From NCBI GenBank assembly GCA_964647585.1, contig CAZYGG010000004.1:16154-80153 (forward strand): 64,000 nt of DNA, written 5' to 3'. The DNA is from an uncultured Desulfobacterales bacterium (GTDB lineage Bacteria > Desulfobacterota > Desulfobacteria > Desulfobacterales > CAJINA01). The notes under the pieces were generated by a model that worked only from the letters and a program-made list of their open reading frames with translations, searched no databases and was not told the DNA's origin. Made by a program: the position numbers and the translations under genes. Shown one piece after another: positions 33,714 through 43,776 of this stretch. The first letter of the stretch is position 1, and each line of letters opens with the position of its first letter.

Positions 33714-34901
33714 ATGGACGAAGTCTTTAAGTATGTCGAGAAAGAGAAGTCTGCAAAGATCAAGGTAATCGGTGTTGGCGGCGCCGGCGGAAACGCCGTC
33801 AACAACATGATCGATTCCAAACTTCAGGGTGTGCGTTTTATCGCGGCGAACACGGATGCCCAGGCCCTGGATGTTTCGAAAGCCCAGGACAGAATCCAGA
33901 TCGGCGAACTGCTCACCGAGGGGCTGGGGGCCGGCGCCAATCCGCAGGTGGGCCGGGATGCCGCTGTTGAAAACCTCGATGAAATCCGCGCAGCCCTGGA
34001 CGGCAGCCACATGGTTTTCATCACAGCCGGATTCGGGGGCGGCACCGGGACAGGCGCGGCGCCGGTCATTGCACAGGCCTGCAAGGACCTGGGCGCACTT
34101 ACCGTGGCGGTGGTTTCAAAACCGTTTTCCTTTGAAGGCCGCAAGCGCGCCCGACAGGCCGAAGAGGGTATCAGCGCGCTCAAAGAGGTTGCCGACACAG
34201 TGATCACTATCCCGAATGACCGCCTGCGGGGCCTGGCCTCCAAAAACGCCCGCATGGTGGACATGTTCAAGAAAGCCGATGAGATCCTCCTGCACTCCGT
34301 CAAGGGAATCACCGATCTCATTATGATCCCGGGTCTCGTCAACCTGGACTTCGCGGATGTAAAGACCACCATGCAAAAGGCGGGACTGGCCATCATGGGC
34401 ATCGGTATCGCCAGCGGCGAGAACCGGGCCGTGGAAGCCGCAGAAAGGGCCATTTCCCATCCGCTGCTGGAAGATATCTCCATTGCCGGCGCCAAGGGAG
34501 TTCTCATGAACATCACCTCCTCCAGTGATCTTACCCTCGAAGAGATGACGGAAGCGTCGGACAAAATCTATGAGGAAGTCGGAGACGATGCTGAAATCAT
34601 CTGGGGCCAGGCCATAGATGAGTCTCTGGGTGACGAAATGCGGGTAACTGTCATTGCCACCGGCATCGGCGGCCCGGAAAAGCGGACCGCACGTGGCTTT
34701 AAGGACATCACCCGGGGAAAGGTGCGCGATTTCACACCGGCCGACATGGAGAACGCAGTGGACCTGGATGAACCGACCTATATCCGCCAGCAGGAGGCTG
34801 TGGGTGAATCATCGGGTGCCACCTACCGCGGATACAAAGGCATTGTCATCGACAACGATGACCTGGATGTTCCGACGTTCTTGAGAAAGAAGGCCGATTA
34901 G
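33714..34901 (+). CDS. ftsZ: cell division GTPase FtsZ
   Basis: 'GVGGAGGNAVN', tubulin signature 'GGGTGTGAAPV', 'NLDFADV', C-terminal 'DDLDVPTFLRK'. Confidence 0.97.
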   Translation: MDEVFKYVEKEKSAKIKVIGVGGAGGNAVNNMIDSKLQGVRFIAANTDAQALDVSKAQDRIQIGELLTEGLGAGANPQVGRDAAVENLDEIRAALDGSHMVFITAGFGGGTGTGAAPVIAQACKDLGALTVAVVSKPFSFEGRKRARQAEEGISALKEVADTVITIPNDRLRGLASKNARMVDMFKKADEILLHSVKGITDLIMIPGLVNLDFADVKTTMQKAGLAIMGIGIASGENRAVEAAERAISHPLLEDISIAGAKGVLMNITSSSDLTLEEMTEASDKIYEEVGDDAEIIWGQAIDESLGDEMRVTVIATGIGGPEKRTARGFKDITRGKVRDFTPADMENAVDLDEPTYIRQQEAVGESSGATYRGYKGIVIDNDDLDVPTFLRKKAD

Positions 34902-34958: not shown

Positions 34959-36671
34959 ATGGCCCGAAAAACCGTAAAAAAAGCGTGGCAACCACTGCGT
35001 GGCGAATCAGGCGTGGTGCAAAAGCAGCATGCCGGCCGTCTCACGGTTGCCCTGGTATATCCCAACACTTACCCGGTGGGGATGTCCAATCTTGGTTTTC
35101 TGACGGTTTACCGCCTGCTCAACGGGTTCGATCACGTTGTCTGTGAGCGGGCATTTCTCCCTGCCGGTAAAGATGGCCCGGCCCGTGGAATTCACACGGT
35201 CGAATCCGGCAAACCGATCAGTGATTTCGATATCGTGGCCTTCAGCCTGTCGTTTGAAAACGATTATCCGGCAATTCTGACAGTACTTGAAAAAGCAGGC
35301 CTCCCCCTGGAATCCGGCGACAGAGGAACCCCCCACCCCCTTGTCGTGGCCGGGGGGGTCGCCTGCTTTCTCAATCCGGAACCGATTGCGGCTTTTATCG
35401 ACTGTTTCCTGCTCGGTGAAGCCGAAATTAGCCTGCCCCTTTTTCTGGACACTTATGCCCCTCAAACCGACCGACAGGCAACCCTGGCACGCATCGCCCG
35501 CCAGGTCCCGGGTGCCTATGTCCCCGCATTCTATTCACCGTCCTACCATAAAGACGGCACGTTAAAAGGACTGGAGGTTCTCCCGGAAGTCCCCCGAACC
35601 GTCAAGCCACCGCGGTTGAACAACCTTGCCGATGAACCGGCTTTCAGCAGCATCATCACCCCGGACACCACGTTCAAGAACACCTATCTACTGGAAGTTG
35701 CCCGCGGATGCCCCCACGGGTGCCGCTTCTGCAGCGCCGGATTTGTTTACCGCCCCCCGCGTTTCCAATCCCTGGGGGCCCTTAAAGCGTGCCTTGAGCA
35801 GGCCGCCGAACGCACCTCTAAAGTCGGCCTGGTGGGCACGGCTGTCTCAGATCTGCCCTGCCTGGCCGACCTGTGCCACTTTGCCACGAACAAGGGGCTG
35901 CAGGTTTCGTTCAGCAGCCTCCGGGCCGACGCCCTCGACGACAACCTGGTGAAAACCCTGCACGCCAATAAAGTAAAAACGGCCACCATTGCCCCGGATG
36001 CAGGCTCGGAACGTATGCGCTGCATTATAAATAAAGGTATCAGTGAAGCCCAGATCCTGAAGGCCGCTGAAAAACTCGTCGCCGGGGGCATTCCCAATCT
36101 CAAACTCTATTTCATGGTGGGCCTTCCCTGGGAAACCGAAGCCGATGTCCGCGCCATCGTAGAACTCACCGGAAAAATAAAGCAGCAGTTTCTGAAAACC
36201 AGCCGCAAATTGAAAAAAATCGGTTCGATAACCGTCAGCCTCAACGCCTTTGTCCCCAAACCTTTTACCCCCTTTCAATGGTGTCCCATGGATGACCGAA
36301 AAAGCCTCCAGTCAAAAATAAAGACCATTCGAAAGGCCCTGCAAAAGATCCCCAACGTCCGGGTCCAGGCCGAAAACCTGCGCTGGTCTTATATCCAGGC
36401 GCTGCTGGCCCGCGGAGACCGGCGGGTTTCCGGGTTGCTGAAACAGGCCCATGCCGGCGGCGGCAACTGGTCGCGCACCTTCAAGGAAACCGTGGTTGGT
36501 CCCGATTTTTATGTCACCCGGGAAAGGTCGACCGATGAACGTCTGCCCTGGGAGTTTATCGACCACGGACTGAAAAAGGCTTTTCTGGTGAGAGAATACC
36601 AAAGGGCCCGTGCCGGGAAAACATCCGCGGCCTGTCCACTGGATAACTGCCATCTTTGCGGAATCTGCTAG
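34959..36671 (+). CDS. radical SAM protein with B12-binding-like N-terminal domain (uncharacterised family)
   Basis: 'LEVARGCPHGCRFCSAG' (CxxxCxxC). The N-terminal 'VALVYPNTYPVGMSNLGF' resembles the family often annotated TIGR03960; that family call was not verified. Confidence 0.75.
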   Translation: MARKTVKKAWQPLRGESGVVQKQHAGRLTVALVYPNTYPVGMSNLGFLTVYRLLNGFDHVVCERAFLPAGKDGPARGIHTVESGKPISDFDIVAFSLSFENDYPAILTVLEKAGLPLESGDRGTPHPLVVAGGVACFLNPEPIAAFIDCFLLGEAEISLPLFLDTYAPQTDRQATLARIARQVPGAYVPAFYSPSYHKDGTLKGLEVLPEVPRTVKPPRLNNLADEPAFSSIITPDTTFKNTYLLEVARGCPHGCRFCSAGFVYRPPRFQSLGALKACLEQAAERTSKVGLVGTAVSDLPCLADLCHFATNKGLQVSFSSLRADALDDNLVKTLHANKVKTATIAPDAGSERMRCIINKGISEAQILKAAEKLVAGGIPNLKLYFMVGLPWETEADVRAIVELTGKIKQQFLKTSRKLKKIGSITVSLNAFVPKPFTPFQWCPMDDRKSLQSKIKTIRKALQKIPNVRVQAENLRWSYIQALLARGDRRVSGLLKQAHAGGGNWSRTFKETVVGPDFYVTRERSTDERLPWEFIDHGLKKAFLVREYQRARAGKTSAACPLDNCHLCGIC

Positions 36672-37008: not shown

Positions 37009-37452
37009 ATGACTTCGAAAAGCGAGTTTCAACTGGCCCTCCGACTGGCGCTCATTCTACTGGTCGCAGGGTTGTTCTGTTTTGCTGCATTTCCCGTCAC
37101 TCCCCCGGAAAGACCTGTAAGATTGGCCTATCAAACCAAAGCCGGCAAGGTCATTTTTGACCACAAAACACATTTGAGTGAGACCGGTTACGGGTTGAAT
37201 TGCGGGGACTGCCACCATCACACCGGCGAAGGTGAGGCCGAGACTGAAGAGCACGGGAACTGCGGCGTCTGTCACGCCGGGCCCGAGGAGGCTGAAGTGG
37301 TCAGTCAGACCTGTAATGAATGTCACGATCCTGAAGACTACGATCTTGAGGATGTGGCCGCCCGGGCAGACGCCTTTCACTCCCAGTGTATCACGTGCCA
37401 CAAAGATTTTGAGGCCGGACCGGTTGAATGTGCCGCCTGCCATGTCATGTAG
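37009..37452 (+). CDS. membrane-anchored multihaem c-type cytochrome (five CxxCH)
   Basis: N-terminal TM 'LALILLVAGLFCFAAF'. Haem motifs CGDCH, CGVCH, CNECH, CITCH, CAACH. First gene of the rnf operon. Confidence 0.85.
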   Translation: MTSKSEFQLALRLALILLVAGLFCFAAFPVTPPERPVRLAYQTKAGKVIFDHKTHLSETGYGLNCGDCHHHTGEGEAETEEHGNCGVCHAGPEEAEVVSQTCNECHDPEDYDLEDVAARADAFHSQCITCHKDFEAGPVECAACHVM

Positions 37453-37521: not shown

Positions 37522-38808
37522 ATGCTGACAAGATCATTTTTTGGTTTCTCGAAGCCCAGAATTAAAAACCTGATAACCGGTGACGTCTACCGCCCACCTG
37601 AGACGATTACCGTCCCCAGTGCGGTGACCCTCCTGGTGGAAAAACCGGGCATTGCCACGGGACCGCCCCTGGTTCAGCCGGGCGAGGCGGTAAAAACCGG
37701 CCAGAAACTGGTTCTGTTTGAACAGGCCGATACGTATGCCACCGCACCGGTCACCGGCCAGGTCACCCAGGTCACGACCCGCGCAGGTGATTTTGGTAAG
37801 ACCTATGTTGAGATTTGCCTGGAAACCGGTGATGCAGACCAGCCGGATGAAAGCTTTGCAGCGGTCTGCGGCGACACCCCGACCCTGGAAACCCTGACCG
37901 GCTACCTGGCCAATGTTCCGGGGAAACCGTGCCTCGAAACACTCAATGACCCCGACAAACCGATAAAAAAGATCGTGGTCAACGGCGCCGACTCGGATCT
38001 GCTGGTGGCCACGCGTCAATACCAGGTGAAAAACCAGGCGGACGATATTCACCACGGCGTCGGCATCCTCAAAACAGTCACCGGGATCGAGGATATCGTC
38101 ATCTGCCTCACCCAGGATGTCACCCAGAATATCGGGCACCTCGGAGCCGAACCGGTAGGGGTCAGCAACGACTACCCCGGCACCCTGCCCCTCATGATTA
38201 TGAAGGACGCGCTGGACATGGAAGTTCCGGCTGGTAGCTCCTGTGAGGATCTGGGGGTTTTCTTTGTCAGTGCGGAAGCCGTGGCAGCCATCGGCCGCGC
38301 TTTTTCACAAAAGGCAATTCCGGTTCAAAAAACCGTTACCGTTGTTGATAAAAGCGGTCATATTCAGCTGTATACGGCAACCATCGGGACACCGCTTGCG
38401 GCAGTATTTGAAGCCATGGGCATGGAACTGGCCGAGGGCGACCGTATCATTTGCGGAGGTCCCATGACCGGTGCGGCCATCTACTCCGACCAATTTCCGG
38501 TCATGCCCGACACCGATGCCATCATGGTTCAGCCTGGCGCGGATATCCCGCTGACTTCGGATTATCCCTGCATCAACTGTGGTGACTGTATCCCCATCTG
38601 TCCGGCCAGAATCCAGGTAAACATGCTGGTCCGCTTCCTGGAAGCCGGCCAGTACCAGGAGGCGGCCGACCTGTATGACCTGCAATCCTGTGTGGACTGT
38701 GGTCTGTGCGCGTTTGTGTGCCCCTCGAAAATTCCTGTTTTTCAGTATATCAAGCTGGCCAAATATGAACTCGATCGGCTTGAATCAGCGGAGGCTGCTA
38801 ATGAGTAA
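37522..38808 (+). CDS. rnfC: RnfC-like subunit (2x[4Fe-4S]) with degenerate NADH/FMN-binding motifs
   Basis: RnfC_N-like 'PGEAVKTGQKLV...APVTGQV', 'CINCGDCIPICP' and 'CVDCGLCAFVCP'. The expected 'GxGGAGFPT' and 'ECEP' positions read 'ANVPGKPCLET' and 'GADSDLL'. Confidence 0.8.
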   Translation: MLTRSFFGFSKPRIKNLITGDVYRPPETITVPSAVTLLVEKPGIATGPPLVQPGEAVKTGQKLVLFEQADTYATAPVTGQVTQVTTRAGDFGKTYVEICLETGDADQPDESFAAVCGDTPTLETLTGYLANVPGKPCLETLNDPDKPIKKIVVNGADSDLLVATRQYQVKNQADDIHHGVGILKTVTGIEDIVICLTQDVTQNIGHLGAEPVGVSNDYPGTLPLMIMKDALDMEVPAGSSCEDLGVFFVSAEAVAAIGRAFSQKAIPVQKTVTVVDKSGHIQLYTATIGTPLAAVFEAMGMELAEGDRIICGGPMTGAAIYSDQFPVMPDTDAIMVQPGADIPLTSDYPCINCGDCIPICPARIQVNMLVRFLEAGQYQEAADLYDLQSCVDCGLCAFVCPSKIPVFQYIKLAKYELDRLESAEAANE

Positions 38809-39760
38809 TCAGAAGAAATTGATCGTCTCCCACGCCCCTTTCTGGCACAATGGGAGCAATGTGACCGAACGCAGTTATGCCATGCTGGTTGCGGCCATGC
38901 CGGCCGTCATCTGCGGTATCCTGCAGTACGGCATGCCGGCCATCGCCGTGGTCTGCTTTTCCGTCGCCACTGCCATGGGCTGGGAGTGGTTGATCAACCG
39001 CACCATGAAACAGGCGCCCACCATTGGGGACGGCAATGCCGCGGTGATCGGCCTGCTGATGGCTATGCTGCTGCCCGCTACGGTTTCCTGGTGGGTCGTA
39101 CTGACCGGCACGTTTATCGCGGTTGTGCTGGGCAAGCAAATTTTCGGCGGCATTGGCGCCAACCCCTTTAATCCGGCGGTCATGTCCATGGCTATCATGT
39201 CCGTGGCCTGGCGGGGCCTGCTGGATTTCGATATCGCCCTGGCTCACTACGATTTCGGCTACAATATGCTCTACCCGCTGGGGGTTCTTAAAGCCTTTGG
39301 CGTTGCGGGCATCGATTCTTACAGTTACGGGGATCTGCTCCTGGGACGACAGGCCGGCGGCCTGGGTTCCACGTTCGGCCTCGGACTGATCATCGGCGGG
39401 CTCTTCCTGATTGCCCGTGGTTTTATTCGCTGGGAAATCGCCGGCAGCTTTCTGGCCGGTGTGCTCGTCACCGCGCTTTTGTTCAATATGTCCGATCCGA
39501 CCCAATACGCCGATCCGATATTCCACCTGCTCACCGGCTACACGCTGATCGGGGCTTTTTTCCTGGCCACCGAGGATGCCTCTTCACCCGTCAATCCCAT
39601 CCCGATGCTGATTTACGGCGCCGGTTGCGGCGTGCTCACCGTGCTGATCCGGAATATCGGCAATTATGCCGACGGGGTGATGCTGGCCATCCTGCTCATG
39701 AACGCCATCAATCCGCTCCTGGATAGAATCAGACCGCAAGCGATAGGAAAGGTAGGATAA
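38801..39760 (+). CDS. rnfD: Rnf complex subunit D
   Basis: 'MSNQKKLIVSHAPFWH' N-terminus typical of RnfD/NqrB; polytopic. ATG 38801 overlaps the rnfC stop by 8 nt. The listed 38675 start would lie inside rnfC. Confidence 0.9.
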   Translation: MSNQKKLIVSHAPFWHNGSNVTERSYAMLVAAMPAVICGILQYGMPAIAVVCFSVATAMGWEWLINRTMKQAPTIGDGNAAVIGLLMAMLLPATVSWWVVLTGTFIAVVLGKQIFGGIGANPFNPAVMSMAIMSVAWRGLLDFDIALAHYDFGYNMLYPLGVLKAFGVAGIDSYSYGDLLLGRQAGGLGSTFGLGLIIGGLFLIARGFIRWEIAGSFLAGVLVTALLFNMSDPTQYADPIFHLLTGYTLIGAFFLATEDASSPVNPIPMLIYGAGCGVLTVLIRNIGNYADGVMLAILLMNAINPLLDRIRPQAIGKVG

Positions 39761-39761
39761 C

Positions 39762-40355
39762 ATGGGTGAAATTATTAAGATGATCGTGGTATTGACGTTC
39801 CTCAGCTCCTTTTCCGGGGGACTGCTGGCCTATGTCAAGGAAAACACCGAAGAACGGATCGAGAACCAGGTGCTCCAATTTGTAAAGGGGCCCACGCTGA
39901 AAAGCCTTTTCAAAGATGCGGAAAACGATCCCCTGACGGACCGTTTTACCATTGACCGCGACAAGCAGAGTATGACCTTTTTCGTCGCCAAACTCGACGG
40001 AAAAACCCAAACCGTCGCCTTTGAGACGTCCGGTAAAGGCTACGGCGGTGATGTCGGCCTGATGGTGGCCGTGAACGTGGCCACCGATAAAATCTACGGG
40101 GCGGGGGTCACCACCCACAGTGAAACCGCGGGCTTAGGTTCCATGGCCAAGGACGATCCGAACTTTGCCGCCCAGTTCGCCGGGCAGCCGATCCTGGAAA
40201 CAATCCAGGTGACCGGTGACGGTGGCAAGATCAACGCCCTTTCCGGGGCGACCATCACATCCCGGGCTGTGTGCGCCGCCGCTACTCAGGCGGGTGCAAC
40301 ATATAAGAGCCTGAAACCGGAAATCGAAGAAAAGCTCAAATCACTTACCCCATAG
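39762..40355 (+). CDS. rnfG: Rnf complex subunit G (FMN-binding)
   Basis: N-terminal TM, 'GYGGDV', and FMN attachment region 'SGATITSRAV'. Confidence 0.9.
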   Translation: MGEIIKMIVVLTFLSSFSGGLLAYVKENTEERIENQVLQFVKGPTLKSLFKDAENDPLTDRFTIDRDKQSMTFFVAKLDGKTQTVAFETSGKGYGGDVGLMVAVNVATDKIYGAGVTTHSETAGLGSMAKDDPNFAAQFAGQPILETIQVTGDGGKINALSGATITSRAVCAAATQAGATYKSLKPEIEEKLKSLTP

Positions 40356-40365
40356 GGAGATAGTA

Positions 40366-40980
40366 ATGGCAAAGTCTGTTACCCACGAATTTATAAAAGG
40401 TTTCTGGGAAGAAATTGCGCCTTTCCGACTGGTTCTCGGGTTGTGCCCGGTACTGGGTGTAACCACCAAGGCTCAATTCGGTATCGGCATGGGTCTGGCC
40501 ACCACGTTCGTGCTGGTCTGCTCCAACCTGCTGGTTTCATCCCTGCGCAATGTGATTCCCAGCAAAGTCCGGGTTCCATGCTTCATCATCATCATCGCCA
40601 CGTTCGTCGTCCTGGTGGAAATGCTTATGCAGGCCTATACATATGAACTCTTCCTGCAGCTGGGTATGTTCATCCCGCTGATCGTGGTGAACTGTATCGT
40701 CCTGGGAAGGGCCGAGGCCTTCGCCTCCAAAAACGGCTTGGTGCTTTCACTGGCGGACGGGCTGGGGATCGGCCTGGGCTTCACCATTTCCCTGGGCGCC
40801 CTGGGCGCTTTCCGCGAAATTTTGGGGGCCGGGACCCTTACGATCTGGGGAGACCCGCTGTTCAACCTGGTCACTATCTTTCCAGGATTTCAAGCATTCG
40901 CTTTCATGGTCCAGGCCCCCGGTGCCTTTGTCGCCCTCGGCCTCATGCTCTGCGGTATGAACATGTTAGGTCAGAAATAG
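40366..40980 (+). CDS. rnfE: Rnf complex subunit E
   Basis: 'LVLGLCPVLGVTT', 'IPLIVVNCIVLGRAEAFA'; RnfE/NqrD family pattern. Confidence 0.9.
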   Translation: MAKSVTHEFIKGFWEEIAPFRLVLGLCPVLGVTTKAQFGIGMGLATTFVLVCSNLLVSSLRNVIPSKVRVPCFIIIIATFVVLVEMLMQAYTYELFLQLGMFIPLIVVNCIVLGRAEAFASKNGLVLSLADGLGIGLGFTISLGALGAFREILGAGTLTIWGDPLFNLVTIFPGFQAFAFMVQAPGAFVALGLMLCGMNMLGQK

Positions 40981-40990
40981 GAGGATTCCC

Positions 40991-41566
40991 ATGGGTGATT
41001 ATATCGTCCTGATTATTAGCTGCATTTTCGTCAACAATATCCTGCTGGCCCAGTTTCTGGGCAACTGCCCGTTCTTCGGAACCTCCAAGAAAATGGAGAC
41101 TGCCGTCGGCATGGCCATGGCCGTGGTATTTGTACTGGTCATGGCCGGGGTGATCTCCTATATCACCTACCACATGATCCTGGTACCCGCCGGCCTGGTC
41201 TACCTGCGGACCATCGCCTTTATTCTGGTAATTGCCTCCCTGGTACAGTTCGTGGAGATGTTCTTGAAAAAAAGCATCCCCGCCCTGTATGCCGGGCTCG
41301 GCATTTTCCTGCCGCTGATCACCACCAACTGCGCCGTTTTCGGCGCCTGCGTGATCAATATCGATCAGGAATACAATTTCATGCAGGCCCTGGTGGCTTC
41401 TTTCGCCTATGCGGTCGGGTTCGGACTGGCGCTGGTTATTTTTGCCGGGCTACGCGAAAAGATTCTTCTGGCCCGGGTTCCCAAACCCCTGCAGGATACG
41501 TCCATTGCGCTGGTTACCGCCGGCGTCCTTTCCCTGGCATTTTACGCCTTCAAGGGAATGGTTTAA
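40991..41566 (+). CDS. rnfA: Rnf complex subunit A
   Basis: 'FVNNILLAQFLGNCPFFG', 'LPLITTNCAVFG'; RnfA/NqrE family pattern. Confidence 0.9.
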   Translation: MGDYIVLIISCIFVNNILLAQFLGNCPFFGTSKKMETAVGMAMAVVFVLVMAGVISYITYHMILVPAGLVYLRTIAFILVIASLVQFVEMFLKKSIPALYAGLGIFLPLITTNCAVFGACVINIDQEYNFMQALVASFAYAVGFGLALVIFAGLREKILLARVPKPLQDTSIALVTAGVLSLAFYAFKGMV

Positions 41567-41593: not shown

Positions 41594-43717
41594 TTGGTCG
41601 AAGCCGTTCTTGTTCTAATGGGAGTGGGTGCTCTCTGCGGCACCATTCTTAGCGTGGCATCCAAAGTTTTCTATGTATATGAAGACCCCCGGATTGCTGA
41701 AATCGAAGGCCACCTGGCCGGGGCCAACTGCGGCGGCTGTGGATTTGCAGGCTGCTCGGCAGCCGCGGTGGCTGTGGTTAATGGCAAGGCCTTGCCTACG
41801 GTTTGTGTTGTGGCCGGCCCTGAAACCACGGCCAATGTGGCCGAAGTCATGGACATGGATCCCGGGACGGCTGAACCGTCACTCTCACAAAACCTGTGCG
41901 AAGGCGGAAACCGGGCTGATGACCAGTACAACTATATGGGTGTGAACACCTGTGCTGCTTTGAGCACCCTGTACGGCGGTGAGCGGGTCTGCCAGGTGGG
42001 CTGCCTGGGTATGGGTGACTGTGTCCGGTCCTGTATTTTCAACGCTATTGCCATAGGCCCTAACGGCTTCCCCGTTGTTGACGAAACCATGTGTGTGGGC
42101 TGTGGTGCTTGTGAAAAAGCCTGTCCGAAGAATATCCTTAAGGTACGGACCATGTCCGAACGGCTGCTCCACTTCAACCAGGAAGACGACGCCCTGGCGC
42201 CCTGCGCACAGACCTGCCCGGCCGAGATCAATATTCCCAAGTATATCTCTCAGATCCGGGAGGGCGATTATGCCGGCGCGGTACATACCATCCGGGAACG
42301 CAACCCGCTGCTACTCTCCTGCGGGCGGGTGTGCCCGCATCCCTGTGAAGATTACTGCCGCCGGGACATCGAGGATGATGAACCGGTTTCCATCAACCAG
42401 CTTAAGCGGTTTGTGGCCGATTATGAAATGAATTCCGGAACCCGGCTGCCCATCTCCTGCGCCCCGGAAACCGGCAAAAAAGTTGCCGTGGTCGGCGGTG
42501 GTCCGGCCGGCCTGAGCTGCGCCTTCTTCCTGAGAAGACTGGGTCACAATGTGACCATCTTCGACATGATGACGGAGCTGGGCGGCATGATCCGCTACGG
42601 CATCCCCGAATACCGCCTGCCCAAAGAGGTCCTTAAATGGGAAACGGACGGCATCCTCAACCTGGGTATCGAGGCCCGGATGAACCAGAAGCTCGGCGAA
42701 GATTTCACCGTCGGCACCCTCAAAGAGGCCGGCTATGACGCCATTTTCCTGGGCGTGGGCGCCTGGAAAGACTACTCTTTAAGGGTGGAGGGTGAAGACC
42801 TCAACGGATGCTACACCGGAATTAACTTTCTGACCAACTTCGCCAGTGATCAGCAATCCGAACATCCCCAGGGTTTCCCCATTGGTAAAAAATGCGTGGT
42901 CATCGGCGGCGGCAACACAGCCATCGACTGTGTCCGCACCCTGGTGAGACTGGGCGCCGAAGAGGTTTCCATCGTCTACCGTCGGACCCGGGCGGAAATG
43001 CCTGCCAACATGGTCGAAATAGAAGCGGCCGAACATGAAGGGATAAACTTCCTGTTCCTGGCAGCCCCCACAAAAGTCATCGGCGATGAAAACGGCAATG
43101 TAAAACAGTTTGAATACCTGAAGTGTGAACTGGGTGAACCGGATGCCAGCGGCCGCCGGAGCCCGGTCCCCGTTGAAGGTTCGGAAACGCTTCTGGATAT
43201 CGATATGCTGGTGACCGCCATTGGCCAGGGGCCGGATGCCTCTTTCAAGGACAAGGACAACGCCCTGGCTGACCTGGAGTTGACCCGCTGGAGCACCATC
43301 GACAACGATCCTGAAATCCTCCAGGCCAACATCCCGTACATTTTCACAGCCGGCGACTCGGCTACCGGGGCCAGCCTGGTGGTGGAAGCCATCGGCGGCG
43401 GCCGGCGGGCCGCCCGATCCATTCACCTGTATCTCATGGGCCAGGATGAGGAAGCGGAAGAACCAGTTGATGTTCCCATACCTCCGGTTCCAAACTCCCT
43501 GCTTAAAAAACACATCCCCGAATCACTATTTGAAGAAGTCCCGGGTGTGGGCAAGCAAAAACGCACCCCCATGCCGGAAATGGATGTAGCCGCCCGCATC
43601 AAGTGCTTTGAAGAAGCGGACCTGGTCATCACCGAAGAAGACGCCAAATACGAATCCAACCGCTGCCTGAACTGCTGCCGGATCTGTTACGACAAGGACG
43701 GCGACCGAGCCGCCTAA
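41594..43717 (+). CDS. rnfB: RnfB fused to a GltD/NfnB-like NAD(P)H-dependent FAD oxidoreductase
   Basis: RnfB part: TM, 'ANCGGCGFAGC', 'CQVGCLGMGDCVRSC', 'CVGCGACEKACP'. GltD-like part from about aa 195: 'CAQTCPAEINIPKY...NPLLLSCGRVCPHPCEDYC', 'VAVVGGGPAGLSCAFFL', 'GGMIRYGIPEYRLP', 'VVIGGGNTAIDC'. TTG start with a GGGAGG RBS. Confidence 0.85.
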   Translation: MVEAVLVLMGVGALCGTILSVASKVFYVYEDPRIAEIEGHLAGANCGGCGFAGCSAAAVAVVNGKALPTVCVVAGPETTANVAEVMDMDPGTAEPSLSQNLCEGGNRADDQYNYMGVNTCAALSTLYGGERVCQVGCLGMGDCVRSCIFNAIAIGPNGFPVVDETMCVGCGACEKACPKNILKVRTMSERLLHFNQEDDALAPCAQTCPAEINIPKYISQIREGDYAGAVHTIRERNPLLLSCGRVCPHPCEDYCRRDIEDDEPVSINQLKRFVADYEMNSGTRLPISCAPETGKKVAVVGGGPAGLSCAFFLRRLGHNVTIFDMMTELGGMIRYGIPEYRLPKEVLKWETDGILNLGIEARMNQKLGEDFTVGTLKEAGYDAIFLGVGAWKDYSLRVEGEDLNGCYTGINFLTNFASDQQSEHPQGFPIGKKCVVIGGGNTAIDCVRTLVRLGAEEVSIVYRRTRAEMPANMVEIEAAEHEGINFLFLAAPTKVIGDENGNVKQFEYLKCELGEPDASGRRSPVPVEGSETLLDIDMLVTAIGQGPDASFKDKDNALADLELTRWSTIDNDPEILQANIPYIFTAGDSATGASLVVEAIGGGRRAARSIHLYLMGQDEEAEEPVDVPIPPVPNSLLKKHIPESLFEEVPGVGKQKRTPMPEMDVAARIKCFEEADLVITEEDAKYESNRCLNCCRICYDKDGDRAA

Positions 43718-43740
43718 AACTTTCGCCTAAAAATATAAAA

Positions 43741-43776
43741 GCCGCAGTCTCTTAGAGGCTGCGGCTTTTTCTTTTA
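43741..43776 (+). terminator. rho-independent terminator of the rnf operon
   Basis: 'GCCGCAGtctcttagaggCTGCGGC' followed by 'TTTTTCTTTT'. Confidence 0.8.

Follow-up and report, generated by a model that had tools for sequence, protein, structure and literature searches.

The gene at positions 41594 to 43717 of the DNA analyzed here (64,000 nucleotides of contig CAZYGG010000004.1, assembly GCA_964647585.1, from an uncultured Desulfobacterales bacterium; hereafter the window) encodes an RnfB subunit that continues in frame into a GltD-like pyridine-nucleotide oxidoreductase module. This fusion is the published "large RnfB" of the Rnf2 ('Desulfobacula toluolica Tol2-type') complex of marine Desulfobacterales sulfate reducers and is already known. 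New here is that, among solved structures, the module comes closest by sequence to the NADPH-input domains of StnC and NfnA, which do not bifurcate, down to a predicted Lys-ligated proximal cluster; that Rnf2, a canonical Rnf1, an Nqr and an NfnB-like gene coexist in one genome; and that a second RnfB-GltD paralogue is without the NADPH motif and mostly adjoins rseC. With modest preference, we read Rnf2 as an Nqr-like, NADPH-fed ion pump in which electrons enter on the RnfB side.

With reference to the D. toluolica Tol2 genome of Wöhlbrand et al. (2013), Dörries et al. (2016; PMC5109826) described an RnfB of about 700 aa with NAD-binding sites, gave the complex the name Tol2-type Rnf2, noted a cytochrome gene in the cluster and detected five of the six Rnf2 subunits in membrane fractions of D. 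multivorans. A later study (Sci Adv 2025; PMC11887813 and its supplement) placed Rnf2 in the core genome of the Desulfobacteraceae, reported that it is constitutively and abundantly formed in six Desulfobacteraceae strains, and found it also in Desulfarculus baarsii and a Desulfovibrio. For the organism of the window, no RNA run was listed. Electron transfer from Rnf2 to cytochrome c was put forward as speculation in PMC5109826 and in the supplement of PMC11887813, and both papers state that the function of Rnf2 awaits experimental verification. The literature that we found on the large RnfB and Rnf2 consists of genomic and proteomic descriptions, with neither enzymology nor a structure among them. 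The original prediction, which was made from the letters of the window alone, knew of no characterized example of such a protein; this stands as far as enzymology is concerned, but the architecture itself had been published (PMC5109826, PMC11887813).

The copy in the window shows no architectural difference from the Tol2-type systems, and it lies in a symbiont-like genome. Shared features are an RnfB of about 700 aa, of which the first 200 are RnfB-like and the other 500 resemble a pyridine-nucleotide oxidoreductase; an RnfC without the FMN-binding Complex1_51K domain (without Complex1_51K/SLBB in the literature); a small cytochrome c gene in the cluster; a Desulfobacterales host; and, in some genomes, a canonical Rnf1 alongside. 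The Rnf2 papers speak of a 'c3' cytochrome and of NAD+/NADH, whereas the cytochrome encoded here has five CxxCH motifs and the motifs of the fused module point to NADPH.

Architecture and relatives of the fused RnfB

The gene and its parts are as follows.

41594..43717, plus strand: rnfB-GltD fusion open reading frame, 707 aa (707 codons), TTG start, a single uninterrupted frame
41594..42178, plus strand: RnfB part, residues 1-195, with a transmembrane helix, a mobile single-cluster FeS domain and a ferredoxin-like dicluster
42197..42436, plus strand: Fer4_20 domain, residues 202-281 (Pfam PF14691, E 1.3e-23), two predicted [4Fe-4S] clusters
42476..43399, plus strand: FAD and NADPH Rossmann folds, residues 295-602 (Pfam Pyr_redox_2, PF07992, E 7e-33)
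43400..43714, plus strand: C-terminal extension, residues 603-707, ending C691-x2-C694-C695-x2-C698

Residues 1-195 of the 707-aa protein constitute a minimal RnfB, and residues 196-707 form a GltD/NfnL-like module made up of the Fer4_20 dicluster, the FAD and NADPH Rossmann folds and the CxxCCxxC tail. In the RnfB part, Pfam placed the FeS domain (PF04060) at residues 41-72, with cysteines C46, C49, C54 and C71, and the Fer4 dicluster at 135-181; among solved RnfB chains this part matched 7zc6_B (E 6.5e-46, residues 4-191) and also 9eri_B. The NCBIfam RnfB models covered residues 1-190, while PRK12771 and PRK12814, which are 'NAD(P)-binding / GltD-like' models, covered 185-699, the C-terminal extension included. 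The motifs are CGGCGFAGC (46-54) and CVGCGACEKACP (167-178) in the RnfB part, CAQTCP (204-209) and CGRVCPHPCEDYC (243-255) in the Fer4_20 domain, GGGPAG (301-306), GIPEYRLP (336-343), GGGNTAID (438-445) and YRRTRAEMPA (462-471) in the FAD/NADPH region, and CLNCCRIC (691-698) in the tail. An AlphaFold2 model of the fusion, built from an alignment of 41 sequences, had a mean predicted local distance difference test (pLDDT) score of 83.6 and a predicted template modelling (pTM) score of 0.83; pLDDT was about 90-97 over the FAD/NADPH region (residues 295-602), and the model was poor only in the last 11 residues and two loops.

The original prediction had described an RnfB running without a stop into a GltD-like module at 42180-43717, a span that corresponds to residues 196-707, and had proposed an analysis of domain architecture. 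That analysis found RnfB, Fer4_20 and Pyr_redox_2 in one 707-aa frame, the translation contains every motif that had been quoted, and the frame is continuous and conserved in other genomes. When 5.8 billion proteins were searched, over 120 clusters with lengths of 685-720 aa and 71-91% identity to the fusion came up, all carrying PF04060, PF14691 and PF07992, and several of them on contigs of 4.6-7.4 Mb. The fusion is held by 77 other genome records (66-91% identity), nearly all labelled Desulfobacterales or Desulfobacteraceae; the closest, at 91%, is that of an Olavius algarvensis Delta 4 endosymbiont. Of 151 genomes sampled from the same order, 135 had an RnfB-like match, and in about 100 a match of the close type lay within an open frame of about 700 aa. 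Contigs from the runs of three studies crossed the RnfB/GltD junction with zero differences; since these runs may be the source of the assembly, they lend weak independent support. A sequencing or assembly artefact is ruled out by the conservation of the fusion, at the same length, across these genome records and protein clusters. The wider idea that the long frame is such an artefact, or else a recent fusion that inactivated two genes, has a negligible chance of being right: all cofactor motifs are intact, the AlphaFold2 model reaches a pTM of 0.83, and the large RnfB has been detected by proteomics (PMC5109826).

By sequence, the best solved relatives of the module are NfnA of Thermococcus sibiricus (9n5u_A, E 3e-120), NfnA of Caldicellulosiruptor saccharolyticus (9bov_A, E 1e-116) and StnC of Sporomusa ovata (8oh5_C, E 2e-103), each aligning over residues ~180 to 697 of the fusion. 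Foldseek with the model of the fusion also ranked these chains at the top (9bov_A, 8oh5_C, 9n5u_A). NfnL (4ylf_B, 5jca_L), GltD and DPD were weaker solved relatives. Among 1.84 billion cluster representatives, the search returned a few full-length fused clusters and then proteins of 1000-1250 aa that matched from their residue 80. In StnABC and NfnABC the module is the entry point of NADPH and its FAD has been shown to be non-bifurcating, with electrons passing from FAD through clusters C7, C6 and C5 to the N-terminal domain, along a chain that includes the cluster bound immediately behind the GltD fold (PMC10482914, PMC11829005). The proximal cluster of StnC/NfnA is ligated by three Cys and Lys170, instead of the Glu of bifurcating NfnB (PMC11829005). 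Residues C208, C247, C251 and K271 of the fusion align with Cys108, Cys147, Cys151 and Lys170 of 9bov_A, which are the ligands of A7 according to PMC11829005, and K271 is conserved in at least 90% of the alignment of relatives (A1). The proximal [4Fe-4S] cluster of the fusion is accordingly predicted, from these aligned residues, to be bound by three Cys and a Lys in the StnC/NfnA manner. The GGGNTAID and YRRTRAEMPA motifs match those of the NADPH-using NfnA chains 9n5u_A and 9bov_A and were intact in every Rnf2-type sequence examined.

These relatives bear on an idea raised in the original prediction, that of bifurcating energetics. On this reading the fused FAD would bifurcate or confurcate as in NfnSL, so that NADPH electrons would go partly to ferredoxin by way of the clusters of RnfB, as the low-potential branch, and partly to the membrane and cytochrome c, as the high-potential one. 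In its favour, the module is clearly related in structure to the NfnL chains 5jca_L and 4ylf_B, and the extra Cys-rich tail could in principle serve a second branch. By contrast, the K271 ligand is of the StnC/NfnA type and not the NfnB Glu, the top-scoring relatives are Bfu-type input domains rather than NfnL, and the operon offers no NfnS/NfnA-like [2Fe-2S]/FAD partner. The Lys ligand and the nearest relatives make an NfnL-like bifurcating FAD very improbable, and bifurcating energetics proved to be the weakest part of the earlier proposal.

The tail has features of its own. At least 90% of alignment A1 shares R690, C691 and C694, residues that recur in almost all tail-bearing relatives, and the C-terminal extension aligns with the StnC/NfnA segment that follows the GltD fold, up to 'RCLxCGC'. 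The Rnf2 type ends in CxxCCxxC, whereas the Bfu type has CxxCxC-x5-C followed by a NuoG-like domain; the CC doublet occurs in the Rnf2 type only. A further peculiarity of this type is the absence of the first cysteine, which in most relatives stands four residues before C204. On account of the CxxCCxxC ending and this missing cysteine, the tail may hold a cluster of its own, a third one that would correspond to C5/A3 of StnC/NfnA, or may complete the distal cluster. The Bfu-type proteins StnC (S. ovata) and NfnA (C. saccharolyticus, T. sibiricus) share with the fusion a Lys-ligated proximal [4Fe-4S] site, the NADPH motif and an 'RCLxC' segment right after the GltD fold. They are, however, soluble proteins of 950-1180 aa with N-terminal [2Fe-2S] and C-terminal NuoG/Fdh-like domains, and they work with NuoE/F-like bifurcating subunits, whereas the fusion has an N-terminal RnfB, stops right after the Cys motif and has Rnf membrane subunits as partners. 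Because it ends at residue 707 after the Cys motif and no NuoE/F gene lies in the operon, we regard it as a relative of the Bfu module and not as a member of the Bfu family.

The Rnf2-type RnfC and the membrane core

The fusion gene is the last of seven in the order five-haem cytochrome c, rnfC, rnfD, rnfG, rnfE, rnfA and rnfB-GltD. The other elements of the operon are listed here.

37009..37452, plus strand: small cytochrome c of 147 aa whose gene opens the operon; its N terminus is a hydrophobic anchor or signal
37522..38808, plus strand: RnfC of the Rnf2 type, 428 aa, FMN/NADH pocket motifs replaced, both C-terminal [4Fe-4S] motifs kept
38675..39760, plus strand: RnfD (Pfam NQR2_RnfD_RnfE, E 7e-90; TIGR01946, 220 bits, over the cut-off)
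39762..40355, plus strand: RnfG, periplasmic FMN subunit (NF045876, RnfG of the DVU2794 type, 249 bits, over the cut-off)
40366..40980, plus strand: RnfE (TIGR01948, 242 bits, over the cut-off)
40991..41566, plus strand: RnfA (TIGR01943, 243 bits, over the cut-off)
43737..43769, plus strand: hairpin resembling an intrinsic terminator, 20 nt past the fusion stop, with a 15-pair stem (8 G-C pairs) and a T-rich tail

The RnfC of this operon had been called degenerate in the original prediction, and it is: it scored 171 bits with TIGR01945 against a cut-off of 246, and 23.5 bits with Complex1_51K against a cut-off of 31.2, and its FMN/NADH motifs are replaced. In an alignment with the solved chains 8ahx_C, 9eri_C and 7zc6_C and the canonical RnfC of the same genome, the FMN loop GLGGAAFPT was changed to NVPGKPC and NGxECEPYLT to NGADSDLLVAT, while the cluster motifs CINCGDCIPICP and CVDCGLCAFVCP were kept, both CxxCxxCxxxC(P) being intact. 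A co-variation between the fusion and the loss of RnfC motifs had also been proposed. At the 59 related loci with enough upstream flank, an RnfC of the divergent type preceded the fusion in every case; these proteins showed 38-82% identity to the RnfC of the operon and only 21-31% to canonical RnfC. The canonical motifs GxGGAxFP and NGxECEP were absent, and replaced, in all 34 Rnf2-type RnfC proteins (RnfC2) that were aligned, 33 from these loci plus the window's own copy. All 34 conserved the eight cluster cysteines and shared a small motif of their own, PG ... DxDLLVxT. Identity to the operon RnfC was 32-38% in the N-terminal half and 68% in the cluster domain. From the motif replacement and this gradient of identity we conclude that the nucleotide/flavin pocket has gone throughout the group and that the clusters are still constrained.

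Between genomes (loci L011-L087), identity is 66-78% for the fused RnfB and 38-55% for RnfC2, which diverges much the faster of the two; its divergence is concentrated in the N-terminal two thirds. This pattern suggests that constraint on what was once the flavin domain has been relaxed or has shifted.

The membrane core, by its cofactor residues, looks intact and functional. Both cysteines for AE1, the [2Fe-2S] cluster, are kept in RnfE ('GLCP' and 'VVNC', conserved with respect to the Rnf1 RnfE) and both in RnfA ('GNCPF' and 'TTNCAV'), and RnfG retains the SGAT flavinylation motif, 'LSGATITS' aligning with 'ITGATISS' of the genome's own Rnf1 RnfG. RnfD aligned to the RnfD of the same Rnf1. 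The longest open frame for rnfD begins within rnfC and has 134 nt in common with its end (38675-38808). As the Pfam match begins at residue 51 and an ATG near 38801 would give the usual short overlap, the listed start is probably too far upstream, and the true start is probably this ATG, overlapping the rnfC stop.

The cytochrome that opens the operon has five CxxCH motifs, at residues 65, 85, 102, 127 and 141, and matched Pfam Cytochrome_C7 (E 3.8e-9) and, under the cut-off, an NCBIfam TmcA-like model; its frame ends 70 nt upstream of rnfC. The Pfam scan of the operon genes found neither NuoE/F genes nor an NfnS/NfnA-like [2Fe-2S]/FAD partner. The hairpin at 43737..43769 marks the end of the operon, and a sigma-70 promoter scan upstream of 37009 returned no plus-strand site. 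Directly upstream of the operon lie a B12-binding radical SAM gene of the TIGR03960 type (34959-36671, just under the cut-off) and ftsZ (33714-34901), neither of which has an evident connection in function with rnf.

Electron input and output of Rnf2

Canonical Rnf complexes (A. woodii 9eri, C. tetanomorphum 7zc6, A. vinelandii 8ahx) have in common with Rnf2 the order rnfCDGEAB, the membrane subunits, the RnfB core and the RnfC dicluster, and in the cytochrome-linked Rnf of Methanosarcina acetivorans and Desulfovibrio a multihaem cytochrome gene adjoins rnf, as it does here. Rnf2 departs from canonical Rnf at two points, the binding of FMN and NADH by RnfC and the ferredoxin-like domains at the end of RnfB. 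In A. woodii, where ferredoxin is thought to dock at the poly-ferredoxin C terminus of RnfB (PMC11889175), it is this end that the GltD module replaces. Nqr offers a parallel, having a flavin/pyridine-nucleotide dehydrogenase at the position of RnfB, a degenerate RnfC homologue and a core of the RnfA/E/D/G type (PMC11889175). It differs in that NqrF is an FNR-type FAD/[2Fe-2S] protein unrelated to RnfB and GltD, whereas the Rnf2 module is of the GltD type; NqrA has lost all cofactors, whereas RnfC2 has two [4Fe-4S] sites; and the acceptor of Nqr is quinone.

In the NADPH-fed pump that we propose, NADPH would reduce the FAD of the fused module, and single electrons would then, by analogy with StnC/NfnA, follow a chain made of the Lys-ligated proximal cluster, the distal cluster and possibly a tail cluster to the clusters of RnfB. 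Next they would come to the [2Fe-2S] cluster that RnfA/E hold in the membrane and to the FMN of RnfG in the periplasm, and this passage would drive export of Na+ (or H+) as in Rnf and Nqr (for transport by Rnf, see PMC11889175). They would leave to an acceptor more positive than NADPH. This might be the periplasmic cytochrome c of the operon, followed by Qrc, menaquinone and sulfate reduction, or else a cytoplasmic partner reached via RnfD and the clusters that RnfC has kept.

Several lines of evidence lead to this model. The nearest solved relatives of the module are NADPH-input modules wired to the preceding domain; the module takes the place of the ferredoxin-docking poly-ferredoxin end of RnfB; RnfC lacks a nucleotide site; and the NADPH motifs are intact in all Rnf2-type sequences examined and degenerate in the family of RnfB-GltD paralogues described below. 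Moreover, provided that Rnf2 couples in the same direction as Rnf, it would be energetically senseless for a partner on the RnfC side to have a low potential. The original prediction had suggested that the pyridine-nucleotide site may have moved from RnfC to the RnfB side, together with the loss of RnfC motifs, and that the complex may couple NAD(P)H to the membrane or cytochrome c. The intact NADPH motif of the fusion fits the first suggestion, the divergent RnfC at all 59 loci and the motif loss in all 34 aligned copies fit the second, and the five-haem cytochrome gene at the head of the operon fits the third.

Some observations weigh against an NADPH-fed pump. Its donor, acceptor, ion and direction are all inferred, no Rnf2 enzymology being found in the literature, as is the wiring of the GltD-module clusters to those of RnfB; the RnfB domain at the N terminus is folded differently from its StnC counterpart, a [2Fe-2S] domain, and StnC is therefore not a strict model for this wiring. 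Ferredoxin or flavodoxin can serve even minimal RnfB proteins, of about 190 aa, which leaves room for ferredoxin input. The conserved RnfC2 clusters mean that electrons very probably still pass through RnfC, for which the model names no partner. Finally, published proteomics mostly missed the Rnf2 cytochrome (PMC5109826, PMC11887813).

The conserved RnfC clusters are well explained, and the cytochrome poorly, by the main rival, in which Rnf2 is a ferredoxin-driven pump and the fused module its terminal NADP+ reductase, making the complex a ferredoxin:NADP+ version of Rnf. We judge this rival unlikely, at somewhere between one in four and one in five in plain terms. Electrons would run from ferredoxin to the core clusters of RnfB, along the usual U-path through RnfA/E, RnfG and RnfD to the two RnfC clusters, and on to the GltD module, which would be attached to RnfB but docked on the remodelled RnfC and whose FAD would reduce NADP+. 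Besides the strict conservation of its clusters, RnfC2 has the N-terminal motif PG ... DxDLLVxT, which does not look like random decay and is expected of a docking surface. RnfC and RnfB stand side by side in the cytoplasm in A. woodii (PMC11889175), the genome's ferredoxin:NAD+ type Rnf1 would make an NADP-specific twin sensible, and the adjoining of two domains in sequence is no proof that electrons pass between them. On the other hand, the solved structures closest to the module have their GltD clusters wired to the preceding domain (PMC10482914), which here would short-circuit such a pump, the ferredoxin-docking poly-ferredoxin extension is absent from the fusion, and the cytochrome c of the operon is left unexplained.

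The same putative wire underlies another alternative, that the module is mainly a cytoplasmic ferredoxin:NADP+ (or NADPH:ferredoxin) reductase merely tethered by RnfB, electrons going back and forth between its FAD and the clusters of RnfB, with no ion transport and with RnfC in a purely structural role. If ferredoxin docks on the RnfB core, a direct connection between the RnfB and GltD clusters, as suggested by StnC (PMC10482914), would permit such a short circuit. We consider this improbable, as no cofactor residue of the membrane core and no gene of the operon has been lost, RnfC2 keeps its conserved clusters, the Desulfobacteraceae have Rnf2 in their core genome and form it abundantly (PMC11887813), and the genome's NfnB-like enzyme already links the NADP and ferredoxin pools. 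Both the tethered reductase and the bifurcating FAD are less likely than the NADPH-fed and the ferredoxin:NADP+ pumps.

Genomic context and significance

The assembly (4.15 Mb, 95% complete) carries, outside the window, a canonical Rnf1 operon rnfCDGEAB on contig C63 (L010:122-5755, minus strand). Its RnfC scored 511 bits, over the cut-off, with full motifs, and its RnfB has 304 aa; no cytochrome gene adjoins it, and NuoE-like and NuoF-like genes lie nearby on the other strand. A genuine Nqr was found on another contig (NqrF, 555 bits), and an NfnB-like gene scored over the TIGR01316 cut-off. Since the genome has Rnf1, Nqr and the NfnB-like gene, Rnf2 is an addition to, and not a substitute for, the ferredoxin:NAD+, NADH:quinone and NADPH/NAD/ferredoxin links.

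A second RnfB-GltD fusion of 714 aa is encoded on contig C60 (L009:8456-10600, plus strand) and belongs to no rnf operon. With the 707-aa fusion it shares 48% identity over the RnfB part and 35-40% overall, and it keeps the FeS, dicluster, Fer4_20 and FAD motifs, with a degenerate NADPH motif (YGGSAGVID ... LFKESATEIGLN). This paralogue family is widespread in the order, with about 45 matches listed. At ten loci examined (relatives L091-L100), an rseC/mucC gene lay downstream of the paralogue in six, and NuoE-like/NuoF-like genes lay upstream only in the window's own genus. The literature covered here contained no discussion of the rseC-linked paralogue. In a quick tree of GltD modules the Rnf2 type formed one clade and the rseC-linked paralogues another. 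P0176, a 692-aa RnfB-GltD protein from another genome, combines an intact NADPH motif with an FeS domain of unusual sequence, and its GltD module nests among unfused relatives (Shimodaira-Hasegawa-like approximate likelihood ratio test, SH-aLRT, 92); its position suggests at least one independent fusion of RnfB and GltD modules. With P0176 an outlier among unfused proteins, the quick tree supports no conclusion on a single origin of both fused families.

Taken further, Rnf2 could be a Na+-pumping oxidoreductase from NADPH to cytochrome c, or to another acceptor, that arose by the same two moves as Nqr and serves completely oxidizing marine sulfate reducers as the main energy-conserving exit for NADPH; we offer this tentatively. 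The two moves from Rnf, as for Nqr, would be the placing of a dehydrogenase module at the position of RnfB and the loss of the RnfC nucleotide site, a scenario that we likewise hold to be possible but somewhat short of an even chance. Because the idea of an NADPH:acceptor pump has already been hinted at in print, only its proof would be new, not the concept. If the proposal is true, Rnf2 would show that a step like that from Rnf to Nqr was taken a second time, independently. The Desulfobacteraceae, which hold Rnf2 in their core genome (PMC11887813), carry out much of the carbon mineralization in marine sediments, and an NADPH-fed Rnf2 pump would link the NAD(P)H from complete oxidation to sulfate reduction with conservation of energy.

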